Sequence record: PP400777
Length of the DNA: 64,000 nucleotides
Direction: 5' to 3' (one strand)
Source of the DNA: Escherichia phage JM10
Part shown: positions 10,731 through 60,254 of the stretch, in pieces
How the letters are laid out: every line of letters starts with the position of its first letter
Position numbering within the stretch: the stretch's first letter is position 1
Notes under the pieces: generated by a model
Told to the model about the DNA's origin: nothing
Database searches by the model: none
The model's input: the letters and a program-made list of their open reading frames with translations, nothing else
Translations under genes and position numbers: made by a program

Positions 10731-11775
10731 CATTATATTCAGCATGAGTCGCAAATTCATGCCCGTTTATATGAAACAACAAAATTTGGATAGTCCATAG
10801 ATATGCAACGTTCTTTTATAGTGCTAGGATGAAAATTTAGCGCTTTAGCTGCTTCTATATAAGACGTATACTTAATACCGTCAACAACCACATATTCAGG
10901 AACTTTATGAATAGTAGTCTTAATACTCAAAACAAGAGGATGAGTTTCGACTTCACTTTCAGTGCAATTTAAATATTCCGCTGCTTTTTTAAAACTTCTA
11001 AAAGTTTTATTTTTAAGCTTTATCGATACTTGTTTTTTACTTTTTCGACTATTGATATTATTTTGCACATGTTCCTTAGATCTTCCGTTTTTAGCATAAT
11101 ATTCAGCTACAGAAGATTTTATATTGTTTTTATGAGATTCGGATAACACTTTACCCTTATGAGCATCTCTTAATTTTTGAATATGTTCTTCAGTATCCGG
11201 ATGCTTATAAAACTTTTTACCGCCTATGGATTTATTTAAACATTTTTTGCTATAAAAATATTTACGTATGACCTCTTCTTCATGTTTTAATGCATCTTTA
11301 TAACTATCAAATGTTTTTAAAATTATCCATTTAGTAGGTGTATCAGTTTTTAAGCGTTCATTTATATACTTAGATGACGTTGTGTAAGTTTTCCAGTTTG
11401 TGGGCTTGTTTTTAATTGTTCTAAATTTTTTATAACCGATATAAATGTCGCCATTAGAAAACTTAACTAAGTATGTAAATGCGTCTTTATCTTTTATTTT
11501 AGTACAACGTCTTTTTATCCATTTCATTGTTTCACCTCGTATTCATAAGATAATCTTATTTATACAAGATGACTGCTGCATGTCGCCATGCAGATTAGAC
11601 TATATCTTCATCTTTCGATGCCGGCCGTTTCGAATAGCATTAGCTTCTATTCTACACCGCTACATTCATCACGGTTAGTCGTTAGGCATTTAGTTCAAAA
11701 GAACATTTAGCACGGGATTGTCTACTAGAGAGGTTCCCCGTTTAGACCGGTTTTACATGAGCCTGAATTAAATTA
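10731..11775 (-). mobile_element. group I self-splicing intron in nrdD carrying a homing endonuclease ORF
   Basis: Conserved group I core on the minus strand (TCTAAACGGGGAACCTCTCTAGTAGACAATCCCGTGCTAAAT, AAATGCCTAACGACTA); P1 pairing of exon UAUGAGU with IGS GCUCAUG gives U-G at the 5' splice site; intron ends …GAATATAATG. Confidence 0.8.
10757..11527 (-). CDS. intron-encoded GIY-YIG homing endonuclease (I-TevII-like)
   Basis: 256 aa; GIY-YIG-like N-terminus (YLVKFSNGDIYIGY), NUMOD3-like basic repeats, I-TevI-like C-terminal DNA-binding module. Confidence 0.8.
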   Translation of the reverse strand: MKWIKRRCTKIKDKDAFTYLVKFSNGDIYIGYKKFRTIKNKPTNWKTYTTSSKYINERLKTDTPTKWIILKTFDSYKDALKHEEEVIRKYFYSKKCLNKSIGGKKFYKHPDTEEHIQKLRDAHKGKVLSESHKNNIKSSVAEYYAKNGRSKEHVQNNINSRKSKKQVSIKLKNKTFRSFKKAAEYLNCTESEVETHPLVLSIKTTIHKVPEYVVVDGIKYTSYIEAAKALNFHPSTIKERCISMDYPNFVVSYKRA

Positions 11776-36880: not shown

Positions 36881-36957
36881 TGGTCGAGGCAGAAGGATTC
36901 TAACCTTCAACCTACGGATTAGAAATCCGTTGCTCTATACAATTGAGCTATGCCTCG
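36881..36957 (-). tRNA. tRNA-Arg (anticodon UCU)
   Basis: Cloverleaf read by eye: acceptor CGAGGCA/TGCCTCG, D stem GCTC/GAGC, anticodon loop TTTCTAA, T arm GAAGG-TTAGAAT-CCTTC, CCA encoded. Confidence 0.8.
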
Positions 36958-36963
36958 AATATA

Positions 36964-37037
36964 TGACCCAGACCAGATTCGAACTGGTAACCTTTCCCTT
37001 ATGAGGGGACTGCTGCTAACCATTGAGCTACAGGGCC
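36964..37037 (-). tRNA. tRNA-Ile2/Met-like (anticodon CAU)
   Basis: Acceptor GGCCCTG/CTGGGTC, anticodon loop CTCATAA, T arm ACCAG-TTCGAAT-CTGGT; the D stem is imperfect as read. Confidence 0.6.
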
Positions 37038-54879: not shown

Positions 54880-56459
54880 GTAATAACAATACATACCAAC
54901 ACGTTTCAAATGAATCTATTTACGTTGAATTCGACCCCGTAGGGTCGAATTTTCCAGATACAGTCACTAATGTCCAAGCCGCATTAGCTGCCATTTCTCC
55001 TTCAGGTGTTAATGGCGTACCGGAAGCAACAACTACTACACCTGGAATTATTCAAATAGCTACTCCACAAGAAGTTATTGATGGATTAGATAATAGTAAA
55101 GCTGTTACTCCGGCAACACTGAATGCTCGTCTACAATATCCTAATGCAACCGAAACTCAATATGGCTTAACTCGTTATGCTACTGAAGATGAAGCAGTAA
55201 CCGGAACTATTGACGATGCATCAATTACTCCGCTTAAATTGAATCAAAAAATAGACAATGTATTTCAGACAAAAGTGTCAACAGAAGCAACAAATGGTGT
55301 AATTAAAATTTCAACTTCTGCTGCGGCATTAGCTGGTTCTGACGATACAACGGCAATGACCCCGTTAAAAACACAACAATTAGCAATTAAACTTATTTCA
55401 CAAATTGCTCCAAATAATAGTGACGCCACCGAATCTATTACCGGTGTTGTTCGTTTGGCTACAGTTGCTCAAGCACAACAAGGCACCCTGCGTGAAGGCT
55501 ATGCAATTTCACCTTATACCTTTATGAATTCAGTAGCATCAGAAACTAATAAAGGTGTCGTTAAACTAGGGACACAGACTGAAGTAAATAGTAACAACTC
55601 TTCAGTTGTAGTGACTGGCGCAACATTAAACGGGCGTGGGGCTACAACTTCTTTACGTGGAGTTGTTCGTTTAACTACACAAGCGGGTAGCCAATCAGGT
55701 GGTGATGGTTCTTCTGCCCTTGCTTGGAATGCTGATGTTATCCACCAACGAGGTGGACAAACTATTAATGGCACGCTTCGCATTAATAATACGTTGACGG
55801 TTGGTTCTGGTGGAGCTAATATAACTGGTAATGTCAATATGACCGGTGGTTATATTCAAGGCAATCGTATTGTGACTCAAAATGAATTAGACCGAATTCT
55901 TCCAGTTGGCGCTATTACAATGTGGGCTGCAGATAGTTTACCGAGTTCTGACTGGCGCTTCTGTCACGGTGGGACCGTTTCTGCTTCAGAATGTCCGGTA
56001 TATGCTTCCAGAATTGGGACACGATATGGTGGTAGCTCTTCTAACCCAGGCTTGCCTGATATGCGTGGATTATTTGTTCGCGGCTCAGGTCGTGGTAACC
56101 ATTTAACTAACCCTAATGTTAATGGTAATGACCAATTCGGTAAACCTCGTCTGGCGGTAGGTTGTACCGGTGGATATGTTGGTGAAGTGCAAAAACAACA
56201 GATGTCATATCATAAGCATGCTGGTGGTTTTGGTGAACATGACGATTCCGGTGCATTTGGTAATACTCGTCGTTCAAACTTTGTTGGTACTCGTAAAGGA
56301 CTTGACTGGGATAACCGTTCATATTTTACTAACGAAGGATATGAAATTGATCCAGCGTCTCAGCGTAACTCTAAATATACCATGAATCGTCCAGAATTAA
56401 TTGGAAATGAAACTCGTCCATGGAATATTTCTTTAAACTATATTATTAAGGTAAAATAA
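54876..56459 (+). CDS. 12: short tail fiber protein gp12
   Basis: 527 aa, as in T4. Confidence 0.9.
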
Positions 56460-57907
56460 TGGCTGATATAACTCTGGTAGATTTACCATATGTTGACGGC
56501 CCGCCAGACGCGGGTCAGAGTCGTATTGAATGGATTAAAAACGATGAAGAAATAACAGGTGCTGACACAAAATACGGTTCTGAAGGTGTAATGAACCGTC
56601 CTATTGTTGAAGTTCAACGTAACGTAGAAGCGTTAGATGTTAATATTAAAACTATAGCATCTTCTTTGAATACGGCCAATGAAGATATCAAAGTTATTCA
56701 AGGTATTTTAGATGTTTCTGGGGATGTTGATGCTCTTGCACAGATAGGTCAGAACACCCAAGATATTGATGTCATTAAAGTCACAGTTCAAACCCATGCT
56801 AGTGAATTGAATGATTTGAATGAACATATTGATGCGAATACTGATGATATTGGTGTTTATAATCAGGAAACAGATTCAGTTTATAGAACGGTTCGTAATG
56901 ACCTGCTTTGGATTAAAAATGAATTAGGACAATATACTGGTCAAGATATTAATGGGGTTCCTACTCCAGGAAATGATAGCACTGGTATGAAACGCCGTAT
57001 TATGACTAATAGCTCTGTAATTGTTGACCACGGTGTTCGATTAACTGATTTAGAAACTAAATTTGCTGATTCTGATGTTGGCTCTTTAACTCTTGAAGTT
57101 GAACACTTGCGCGAAGAAATGGGGCCTCGTACTTCTTTCACTACTCCAGTGTTTAGTCGTCTTTCCGGTATTGATTTAACTTTGTCGCGTCAAAATGCTG
57201 ACTTGGATGGCATTAAACAGTCTATTGGGTATCCTAATACGACTTCTATTATTACTACAACTAATGCGAATAGTTCAGCAATAAACGACATTAATCTTGA
57301 GCTCAATCAATCCGGTGGTATTAAACCTCGTTTGACTACAGTAGAAACTGCCATTGGCGCTGATGATTTGCCTACTACAATCCAAGGACGTATTAAACTC
57401 AATACTGATGCTATCGGAGCATTGAACACTGTTGTCGGCTCTGATTCTTCGTCAGGATTGCGTTTTAATGTGTCATGGTTAAATAACGTAGTCGGTGTTG
57501 ACGCTTCAGGTGGTAAACCGGAACCAGACGGCTCTTTGCTTTATCGTACTCGAGAGCTTGAAGGAACTATCGGTGGGCTGAGTAATGACATTCAGAACAT
57601 TCAAACTGATGTTGGGACTAATTCCACAGGAATTAAGGGTTCTGTAAACACATTAAATACTCTTATAAATGGCACCAACCCAAATGGTTCAACTGTTGAA
57701 GAACGCGGTATATTGCCTACAGTTAAAAGTCATGATACGACAATTAATGGTTTAACTTCTAGAATTGCTACTCTTGAAACTGATTTGGCCGCTGCAGAAG
57801 CTGAAATTCAAACTCTTAAGGACGCTGGATATATTGAAGATGCTCCTTCAGACGGTAAATTCTATGTTCGCAAAGATGGTGCATGGGTTGAACTTCCTAC
57901 AGCTTAA
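56459..57907 (+). CDS. wac: fibritin (whisker) Wac
   Basis: 482 aa coiled-coil protein with foldon-like C-terminus …GYIEDAPSDGKFYVRKDGAWVELPTA. Confidence 0.85.
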   Translation: MADITLVDLPYVDGPPDAGQSRIEWIKNDEEITGADTKYGSEGVMNRPIVEVQRNVEALDVNIKTIASSLNTANEDIKVIQGILDVSGDVDALAQIGQNTQDIDVIKVTVQTHASELNDLNEHIDANTDDIGVYNQETDSVYRTVRNDLLWIKNELGQYTGQDINGVPTPGNDSTGMKRRIMTNSSVIVDHGVRLTDLETKFADSDVGSLTLEVEHLREEMGPRTSFTTPVFSRLSGIDLTLSRQNADLDGIKQSIGYPNTTSIITTTNANSSAINDINLELNQSGGIKPRLTTVETAIGADDLPTTIQGRIKLNTDAIGALNTVVGSDSSSGLRFNVSWLNNVVGVDASGGKPEPDGSLLYRTRELEGTIGGLSNDIQNIQTDVGTNSTGIKGSVNTLNTLINGTNPNGSTVEERGILPTVKSHDTTINGLTSRIATLETDLAAAEAEIQTLKDAGYIEDAPSDGKFYVRKDGAWVELPTA

Positions 57908-57913
57908 TGAAAA

Positions 57914-57934
57914 GGGCCTTCGGGCCCTAAAGGA
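57914..57934 (+). terminator. terminator-like hairpin after wac
   Basis: GGGCC-TTCG-GGCCC hairpin; weak U tract. Confidence 0.4.
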
Positions 57935-57939
57935 TTTAT

Positions 57940-58866
57940 ATGTCAGGTTATAATGCACAAAACCCTAAAGAATTAAAGGATGTAATATTACGTCGTTTAG
58001 GCGCTCCTATTGTAAATGTTGAATTAACTACAGACCAAATTTATGATTGTATTTCACGAGCGTTAGAACTTTATGGCGAATACCATTTTGACGGGTTGAA
58101 TAAAGGTTTCCATGTATTTTTTGTTGATGACGAAGAAAAATACCGTCACGGCGTATTTGATATGCGTGGTTCTAACGTATTTGCTGTAACAAGAATTATA
58201 AGAACAAATGTTGGCTCTATTACTTCAATGGACGGTAATGCAACTTATCCATGGTTCACTGATTTCCTTTTGGGGATGGCAGGTGTTTCAGGTGGTATGG
58301 GTAGTAATTGTGGTAAATTCTACGGCCCAAACGCTTTTGGCGCTGACCTCGGGTATTATTCTCAATTAGTATCTTATATGGGTATGCTTCAAGATATGAT
58401 TGCTCCTATTCCGGATTTTTGGTTTAACTCTGCAAACGAGCAATTAAAAGTAATGGGTAACTTTAGACAGAAAGATGTCATTATCGTTGAATCGTATGTT
58501 CGCTCTTATATCGAGACCCATAAGATGGTAGGAAATACAGTAGGGTACGGTCAGGTAGGTCCTCGTGATTCATGGTCTATTTCTGAACGTTATGATAATC
58601 CAGACAATAATTTGGTCGGACGTCGAGTTGGTGAAGATCCTGCAACTAAACAAGGCGCATATAACAACCGCTGGGTTAAAGATTATGCAACTGCATTAGC
58701 TAAAGAGCTTAATGGACAAATTCTTGCTAAACATCAAGGTATGATGTTACCAGGTGGCGTCACTGTTGATGGTGTTCGATTAATTGAAGAAGCTCGTTTA
58801 GAGAAAGAAGCTTTACGAGAAGAGTTATATTTACTGGACCCTCCTGCAGGTATTTTGGTAGGTTAA
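57940..58866 (+). CDS. 13: neck protein gp13
   Basis: 308 aa (T4 gp13 is about 309 aa); synteny wac-13. Confidence 0.85.
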
Positions 58867-58867
58867 T

Positions 58868-59503
58868 ATGGCAACATACTACAGATTGTATATTACAACA
58901 TTTGAAACATCCACCGGTATAAAGATTTATGGTGGTAAACACAAATCAGTTTACGAAGACCCTTCAAAAGACCCTTATACTGGGTCTGGTACCTTTATAC
59001 GAAGAGCCAAAAGAAAATACGGTCCGTCTTGTATAAAAGAAATTATATGGTCTAAGCCATTTGAATCTAAAGCTCTAATGGATGAAGCTGAAGAGTTACT
59101 GGTAGATGAATTATCCATTTTAGAAAATTGCGCAAATCTTGTTAAAGGGGGTGCAGGCGGAAGGTCGTATATTAACCCAGAAGATAATCCATCTATAGGA
59201 CAAAAACGTTCAGTCCAATCTAAAAAGAAAATGTCTGACGCCGCGAAATCAAGAAAATGGACTGAAGAAGGGTTAAGAAAACGTAAAGAATCTACAGCAA
59301 GAATGTGGAAAGATTTCAAACATAGACATCCTGATTTTTCTGGTTCAAAAAATCCAGCAGCTCGAAAAGTTAGTGTAAATGGTAAAATATTTAACACCTG
59401 CAAAGAATGTGGTGAAGAATTTAATATCACATCAAGCGCGGTTATAGGCCGATGCAAAAACAACAAACCTAAATGGGCAGGATGGAATTATGTCGACGTA
59501 TAA
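58868..59503 (+). CDS. free-standing GIY-YIG-type homing endonuclease-like protein (Seg-like)
   Basis: 211 aa; GIY-YIG-like [24 protein letters not shown]3-like basic repeats, Cys pair and I-TevI-like C-terminal module; 3' end overlaps the gene 14 start by 14 nt. Confidence 0.65.
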
Positions 59504-60254
59504 TTCAAATTTATTTGCAAAGTTAGAAAATCGAGAAGGCTATTCTAAAACTAATGAAACCGAGATTTTAAACAAATACGTGAACTTCAACAAATACGAA
59601 AATAGTCAAACCCTAGCTGATGTTCTAGTGGCAGAAAGCATACAGATGCGCGGTATTGAATGTTTTTATGTTCCGCGTGAATATGTTGCCGTGGACCTTA
59701 TCTTTGGTGAGGACCTTAAAAATAAATTTACTAAAGCATGGAAATTTGCTGCATATCTGAACTCTTTTGAAGGTTATGAAGGAGCGAAATCGTTCTTCAG
59801 CAACTTCGGAATGCAAGTTCAAGACGAAGTTACATTATCTATTAACCCGGGTCTTTTCAAACACCAGGTCAACAATCAGGAGCCCAAGGAAGGTGATTTA
59901 ATATACTTCCCAATGGACAACAGTTTGTTTGAGATTAACTGGGTTGAACCATATGACCCATTCTATCAAGTAGGTAAAAATGCGATTCGTAAAATTACTG
60001 CAGGCAAGTTTATTTACTCTGGCGAAGAAATCAATCCGGTGCTTCAGAAAAATGAAGGTATCAATATACCTGAATTTAGTGACTTGGAACTTAACCATGT
60101 TAGAAATCTTGACGGTATCCATGACATTAATATCGATGAATATTCTGAAGTTGAGCAAATCAATTCAGAGGCAAGTGAATACGTTGAGCCGTATGTAGTA
60201 GTTAACAACCGTGGTAGACAAAATTCACCGTTTGACGACGGGTTTATGAATTAA
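59490..60254 (+). CDS. 14: neck protein gp14
   Basis: 254 aa (T4 gp14 is about 256 aa). Confidence 0.85.

Follow-up and report, generated by a model that had tools for sequence, protein, structure and literature searches.

A probable free-standing Seg-like homing endonuclease gene inserted between neck genes 13 and 14 of a T4-like Mosigvirus

The window analysed here is a stretch of 64,000 nucleotides from Escherichia phage JM10 (PP400777), a T4-like Mosigvirus, and its list of open reading frames places a 211-aa ORF with an ATG start (58868-59503, + strand) between two neck genes. On the left lies gene 13 (neck/head-tail adaptor, 57940-58866, +), named from the ORF list and from the neck protein gp13 of related records; on the right lies gene 14 (neck/head closure, 59490-60254, +), assigned in the same way from the annotations of related records. 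PHROG, profile and AF2 evidence, given below, leads us to describe the ORF as a free-standing Seg-like GIY-YIG homing endonuclease gene (HEG). Its translation start region (58857-58870, +) holds an SD-like GGTAGG, the gene 13 TAA (58864-58866), a single T, which is the only base separating the two genes, and the ATG at 58868. At the other end the HEG and gene 14 are entangled (59479-59503, +): the SD-like AGGA of gene 14 (59479-59482), 7 bases upstream of its ATG, sits within the HEG codons for K-W-A-G-W, and the ATG itself (59490) falls in the final five HEG codons, inside the codon for the conserved C-terminal Tyr, so that the two genes overlap by 14 nt before the HEG stop at 59501-59503. 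The sequence-only reading from which this work started had described a 211-aa ORF between genes 13 and 14 with a 14-nt overlap, and its coordinates matched ours to the base; it had also given the two genes as adjacent in T4, as indeed they are (gene 13 runs to 94553 there, and the first base of gene 14 is 94555).

A search of the 13-14 region (57.9-59.5 kb) for the exact late-promoter sequence TATAAATA found none, and a sigma-70/terminator scan was at chance level, so a dedicated HEG promoter cannot be claimed. Further upstream, between wac and gene 13, there is a GC-rich hairpin, AGGGCCTTCGGGCCCT (57913-57928), which the annotations of KAW3E185 and NRG-P0074 give as a putative terminator and which may influence the amount of late transcript reaching 13-HEG-14. 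The wac (fibritin) region, at 56400-57700 of the window, is 30-40% divergent across most of wac in the HEG-carrying phage SQ17, and from 57900 onward SQ17 and the window differ by about 1%; this sharp mosaic boundary just 5' of gene 13 is unrelated to the HEG.

The predicted protein consists of an N-terminal GIY-YIG nuclease domain (about aa 1-98; 58868-59161, +), a helical, basic linker that may carry NUMOD3-like repeats (about aa 105-150; 59180-59317, +) and a C-terminal I-TevI-type HTH DNA-binding domain (about aa 159-208; 59342-59491, +). It matches PHROG 314, 'homing endonuclease', with an E value of 5.5e-37. Searched as a single sequence, it gave no Pfam GIY-YIG match (PF01541/PF19835) even at E<=10, and scored below gathering with both NUMOD3 (18.1 bits, gathering score 20.4) and I-TevI_DNA-bd (PF20987; residues 159-204, 22.6 bits, gathering 27); phmmer against the PDB returned noise and a weak match to 1I3J. 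The large protein database has only 12 close relatives (53-63% identity). In Pfam, 12/13 relatives match I-TevI_DNA-bd (best 1.6e-10), 12/13 match NUMOD3 weakly (best 3.9e-4) and one of 13, most likely the Phi1 gene, matches PF19835. A profile built from the 12 reaches 2,286 proteins, many of them with PF01541, PF19835 (SegE_GIY-YIG), PF07460 and PF20987. Among solved structures, I-TevI is the endonuclease of the T4 td intron, with 1LN0/1MK0 representing its catalytic domain and 1I3J/1T2T its DNA-binding domain. A 54-sequence profile of the family matched 1I3J with an E value of 7.9e-13 (residues 127-216) and 1LN0 with one of 5.8e-6.

The AF2 model of the HEG protein (pLDDT 91.5) has the alpha/beta GIY-YIG fold in its N-terminal ~95 residues, a catalytic half that resembles I-TevI structurally, and linker helices at residues 116-127 and 133-149. 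In the nuclease domain we recognise R-L-Y8 (the 'GIY' element), I-Y21-G-G (the 'YIG' element), H25, Y37-x-G-S-G41, K50, E75 and N90-L-x-x-G-G, and Y21, G23, Y37, G39, S40, G41, K50, E75, N90 and G95 are invariant across the 54 sequences. Y8 is invariant within the clade of genes found at 13|14, and the hairpin loop is 2 residues longer than that of I-TevI. In the HMM alignment, the Y-x-Y, Y-I-G, E and N of the family fall on Tyr6, Tyr17, Glu75 and Asn90 of I-TevI. A reading of the Pfam blank as absence of a nuclease domain was therefore rejected on profile and fold evidence. The linker has no zinc finger: residues 95-160 contain no Cys4/His cluster, and of the three cysteines found in the C-terminal half (C178, C181 and C196) C181 alone is conserved. 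The label 'degenerate GIY-YIG plus NUMOD3-like linker plus I-TevI-type HTH', which the sequence-only reading had given to the protein, is thus a fair one: the N-terminal motifs, the fold and the 1LN0 match bear out the first element, with the catalytic Tyr, Glu and Asn kept on alignment, the matches of the relatives and of 1I3J bear out the last, and the NUMOD3 match of the linker, below gathering in the window protein itself, is weak in nearly all relatives.

The protein also offers grounds on which the HEG might be taken for a catalytically dead or decaying remnant, kept by linkage and by a 3' end that supplies the SD and start codon of gene 14. Arg27 of I-TevI is essential, and in the HMM alignment it lies within an insert that the Seg profile leaves unaligned; at the nearby position 25 the window HEG has His where its 12 closest homologues have Arg. 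Together with the absence of a Pfam GIY-YIG call on the single sequence, this would fit decay, and the embedding of the gene 14 SD and start in the last HEG codons means that a clean deletion would be selected against. However, we rejected His25 as a mark of inactivation, since His is the commonest residue at that position in the wider Seg family (H in 26/54, R in 23/54), and Y21, E75 and N90 are invariant. The ORF is, moreover, intact and full length in each of the 12 Mosigvirus copies, as well as in 32 records spread over four other genera, and the diversity data presented below point to recent spread of the cassette across non-congruent backgrounds. We therefore consider a dead remnant quite unlikely.

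The insertion itself was defined by comparison with related phages. When the 13-ORF-14 segment was compared by megablast with a set of 50,697 phage records, 196 of them matched, and 12 covered the whole segment at 98.0-98.9% identity; the HEG-carrying records include moskry, mogra, F2, S143_2, NicPhage, 308Ecol101PP, C06, JQD51, RPN187, phiEC1 and SQ17. The HEG is absent from about 141 of about 153 Mosigvirus records (two-piece megablast matches at >=90% identity), the genus of the HEG-less records being Mosigvirus wherever taxonomy was read. In the HEG-less records the 13-14 segment spans 1693 bp as against 2315 bp, a difference of 622 bp. The junction of the HEG-less Mosigviruses F27, KAW3E185 and F31 has the sequence ...GGTAGGTTAA T ATGGCAACTTATGATAAAAATCTTTTCGCC..., and its ATG starts gene 14. 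The window is identical to this empty site through ATGGCAAC (58868-58875), with the first mismatch at 58876, so the HEG uses the RBS region of gene 14, its ATG and its first four residues; in fact, the HEG protein begins MATYYRLY, and MATY are the first four residues of the displaced gene 14. The claim that the ORF is an insertion relative to related phages is thereby upheld, as genes 13 and 14 abut in T4 and in most relatives, and alignment of the junctions fixes the empty site to the base. At the 13|14 position of 12 phage genomes the encoded protein is identical or 99% identical, and these copies, together with the 55-63% identical homologues in 32 more records and the PHROG 314 match, show that this is no chance ORF.

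Public annotations call the gene 'putative endonuclease', 'homing endonuclease', 'GIY-YIG endonuclease' or 'intron-associated endonuclease'. In the JQD51 record (PV204681; our locus L058, 1-5315) the product names are shifted by one gene, gp13 being called 'endonuclease' and the HEG 'head closure protein', which is an annotation error in the public record. The labels 'intron-associated endonuclease' and 'group I intron endonuclease', found in OR062945 and MK327947, would make the HEG an intron-encoded enzyme, and the one NCBIfam match of the protein, to TIGR01453 grpIintron_endo, goes in the same direction, although at 26.7 bits it is well below the cut-off of 56. Against this, the HEG stands between two complete cistrons with gene 14 uninterrupted, nothing of intron size is missing from the HEG-less allele besides the ORF itself (a 622-bp difference, as against an ORF of 636 bp), and no Rfam family was found at gathering score in 57-60 kb by a scan whose speed filters missed the nrdD intron described next. 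That this gene is intron-encoded is scarcely credible.

An intron-encoded relative does exist elsewhere in the window. A 256-aa I-TevII-like ORF (10757-11527, -), identified by the Seg profile, PHROG 314 and Pfam, splits nrdD and lies in a group I intron whose core (RF00028, 11576-11811, -) scored 70.9 bits, above gathering. Only a permissive local scan, confined to a short stretch, recovered the core. The whole-window scan at gathering score reported two tRNAs and nothing else; these two adjacent tRNA genes (RF00005, 72.6 and 54 bits) lie at 36884-37037 (-). The HEG and the nrdD-intron ORF share 24% identity (E 9e-5) and PHROG 314, and they are the only Seg-profile matches in the window (3.7e-12 for the intron ORF), in agreement with the proposal that the genome carries two related GIY-YIG-type genes. 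The further suggestion that they have the same architecture holds in outline only: both have a GIY-YIG-type N-terminus, a basic linker and a C-terminal HTH, but the intron ORF is on the minus strand, lacks the G-S-G motif, and combines SegE_GIY-YIG with two NUMOD1-type HTH repeats in place of I-TevI_DNA-bd. Unlike the HEG, it is intron-encoded and has a late-promoter-like sequence of its own, an exact TATAAATA at 11557-11564 (-), 30 nt upstream of its ATG (11527).

The 13|14 position of the HEG is not peculiar to Mosigvirus. All 44 phage records with a homologue of more than 55% identity place the gene at 13|14, overlapping the neck gene; 12 are Mosigvirus and 32, with 55-63% identity, come from four other genera: Dhakavirus (MX01, vB_EcoM_005), Gaprivervirus (VR26, SP18, RZ), Krischvirus (G5211, G37-3, Brandy) and Slopekvirus (phT4A, KpCCP1 and others). 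In 7/7 HEG-carrying examples from the five genera, the end of the HEG overlaps the start of gene 14, the shared stretch being 8 or 14 nt long, and in four genera the HEG ATG occupies the exact place of the gene 14 ATG of HEG-less relatives. These Seg-like genes of other Straboviridae share with the window ORF the junction, the overlap with the gene 14 start and, as shown below, the recoded gene 14 5' end, and they are its true family; they differ in their first codons, which read MATY, like the displaced gene 14, in the window HEG and in VR26, and MFY, MHY or MQF in the others. Between genera the HEG proteins are 57-59% identical, as compared with 50-66% for gp13/gp14, a similarity that makes old vertical inheritance with repeated loss possible at this level.

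Other genes have also landed in this region. Phi1 (L003, 1501-2085) and ECD7-like phages (L054, 1909-2502), both Krischvirus, carry at 13|14 a second Seg lineage with 29% identity to the window protein, and G5211, G37-3 and Brandy, of the same genus as Phi1/ECD7, carry the 56% identical lineage, so the junction has been invaded independently at least twice. In a Tequatrovirus-like contig (IMGVR_UViG_3300006879_000347; L014, 1687-2499) a 270-aa ORF with an HNH motif (…ESHHIVPKSMGGDDSRENRVLLTAREHYFAHE…) lies at 13|14, its ATG overlapping the gene 13 stop and the gene 14 start being unaltered; the junction is thus also used by an unrelated endonuclease family. Three other T4-like contigs (L033, 3301-3912; L045, 3151-3774; L050, 3248-3931) have Seg-profile ORFs (E 6e-7 to 5e-9) immediately downstream of gene 14, before gene 15, which suggests that HEGs can land at several places in the neck-gene cluster. 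In HEG-less Krischviruses (L039/L040, about 2458-2497) a hairpin, GGGGGAGTATTCCCCC, separates genes 13 and 14, and in G5211 (L010, 1169-1185) the HEG is inserted within it, with identity through GGGGGAGTATT followed by the HEG ATG, which makes the left junction in Krischvirus slightly different. With two unrelated Seg lineages and an HNH gene found there across six genera, 13|14 looks like a recurrent landing site.

The flanks of the insertion carry a second signature. HEG-carrying and HEG-less alleles were compared genus by genus in bins of 50 nt. Over its final 100 nt, gene 13 showed 0-1 differences per 50 nt, whereas the beginning of gene 14 was strongly altered: in Mosigvirus 15/50 nt differ from HEG-less KAW3E185 in the first bin and 0-1 per 50 nt further on, and the first two bins hold 11+10 differences in Dhakavirus, 16+14 in Slopekvirus, 10+9 in Gaprivervirus and 24+18 in Krischvirus G5211. 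Past the recoded tract, divergence returns to background in all five genera. In the window the tract corresponds to gene 14 codons 1-16 (59490-59537, +), which we take as the right end of the cassette from the comparison of HEG-carrying with HEG-less alleles. Among the changed codons 7/11 are synonymous in Mosigvirus and 10/11 in Dhakavirus. We infer that codons 1-16 represent an immune version of the target site, and that the tract would be the actual recognition site; it could also be merely foreign DNA that arrived with the cassette, and not a selected immunity change. A search for a donor of the tract among 34 loci gave as best match 46/54 nt, in an unrelated HEG-less contig (L021).

The cassette is also more uniform than its surroundings. 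Among seven HEG-carrying Mosigviruses the HEG shows 2-5 differences per 614 sites (mean 0.5%) and the recoded gene 14 start 0-2 per 60, while gene 13 shows 3-33 differences per 927 sites (2.0%) and gene 14 beyond the recoded start differs by 1.4%; the cassette is thus about fourfold less diverse than its flanks. In gene 13, HEG-carrying phages are no closer to each other than to HEG-less phages. A near-invariant cassette (58876-59537) in non-congruent flanks is the pattern to be expected of recent horizontal spread by gene conversion.

Taken together, the position, the protein and the pattern of variation make it quite probable that the ORF is an active or recently active free-standing Seg-like HEG whose target is the 13|14 junction together with the beginning of gene 14; the gene is real and probably mobile. 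Our literature search found no report of cleavage, homing or expression for the HEG protein or its 13|14 relatives, and no paper characterising a 13|14 endonuclease, and the scheme that follows is modelled on I-TevI, on SegB, SegE, SegF and SegG, and on the established paradigm of Seg homing with co-conversion (PMC2330249, PMC2988022). In a mixed infection with a HEG-less relative, the HEG would be translated late from the wac/13/14 late transcripts, and its HTH and basic linker would attach to the uninterrupted 13|14 / gene 14 5' sequence in the co-infecting HEG-less genome. The tethered GIY-YIG domain would then introduce a staggered double-strand break nearby, and through recombinational repair off the HEG-carrying genome the recipient would acquire the HEG along with the recoded start of gene 14. 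The HEG-carrying genome would itself be immune for two reasons: the insertion places 622 bp between the two parts of the site, and there are 15 substitutions in the part that belongs to gene 14.

Two further readings were considered. In one, gp14 synthesis would depend on HEG translation, an 'addiction' that retains the gene, and the cassette would in addition move between genera with 50-120 nt of foreign gene 14. Its basis is that the HEG takes over the RBS and ATG of gene 14, with a new SD and ATG created within the codons of its own conserved C-terminal K-W-x-x-W-x-Y motif, and the Krischvirus G5211 allele suggests an inter-genus move carrying foreign gene 14 DNA. We regard this combined reading as rather unlikely; if it were true, precise loss of the HEG would be resisted. 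In the other, the HEG would be a domesticated nuclease or DNA-binding protein serving the phage and not its own homing, possibly by excluding HEG-less relatives, by a SegB-like stimulation of segmental amplification or recombination, or by controlling gp14 translation through coupling. Seg enzymes do partially exclude related phages (PMC2330249), SegB reportedly promotes the amplification of anti-defence loci (PMC13096335), and the HEG does occupy the native start of gene 14, which restarts inside the HEG end. However, only about 8% of Mosigvirus records carry the gene, which argues against a generally useful function, and exclusion follows from homing and is no alternative to it. Domestication is for us very unlikely, and a Seg-like HEG that homes into the 13|14 junction remains our preferred reading.

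The HEG is, then, a further uncharacterised Seg-type gene of a known class, whose identity is already correct in GenBank annotation. Free-standing HEGs of the Seg type have been described in T4 since the 1990s, and RB69 is a classical member of Mosigvirus. As to other T4-like phages, Petrov et al. (2010; PMC2993671, Table 5) count one seg-like gene in phi-1, none in RB49 and none in RB69. From these counts, polymorphism of the 13|14 junction is implicitly on record, and since the same table gives RB69 as without HEGs, the HEG marks variation within Mosigvirus and introduces no new biological principle. What it does offer is a target that can be guessed to about 60 bp, namely the 13|14 boundary plus the first 16 gene 14 codons, so that a cleavage assay and a marker-exclusion cross are easy to design; and the mostly synonymous recoding of the start of an essential neck gene would be a natural example of target-site immunity.

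The closest known systems are the free-standing GIY-YIG homing endonucleases SegA-G of T4, of which SegC, SegD and SegF are nearest to the HEG in sequence (tblastn, 32-37% identity, E 5e-9 to 2e-7). The similarities are: (i) Y-x-G-S-G and K-Y-G, two motifs specific to Seg proteins, in an N-terminal GIY-YIG domain; (ii) an intergenic position between conserved genes; (iii) a sporadic occurrence among close relatives; and (iv) a diverged flanking target in the phages that carry the gene. In contrast to the T4 Seg proteins, the HEG has a recognisable C-terminal I-TevI-type HTH, and its gene starts at the ATG of the displaced gene and overlaps the start of gene 14. T4 segC, segD and segF are at other loci and, unlike in the window, the T4 13|14 junction is empty. 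The label 'segC' on the Phi1 and SP18 genes raised the possibility of orthology with T4 SegC, which we rejected on 33% identity (E 5e-9) and a different locus, T4 segC lying about 14 kb from 13|14 (80.2 kb in MT984581). With I-TevI, the HEG shares a GIY-YIG catalytic domain, an extended linker and a putative minor-groove helix plus HTH, and the equivalents of E75 and N90 even carry identical residue numbers. It differs from I-TevI in not being intron-encoded, in having no zinc finger in the linker, in its length (211 aa vs 245 aa), and in the helix that bears Arg27/His31 in I-TevI, which is shorter in the HEG, where the Seg motif K-H/R-x-S...D-x-Y-x-G-S-G takes its place.
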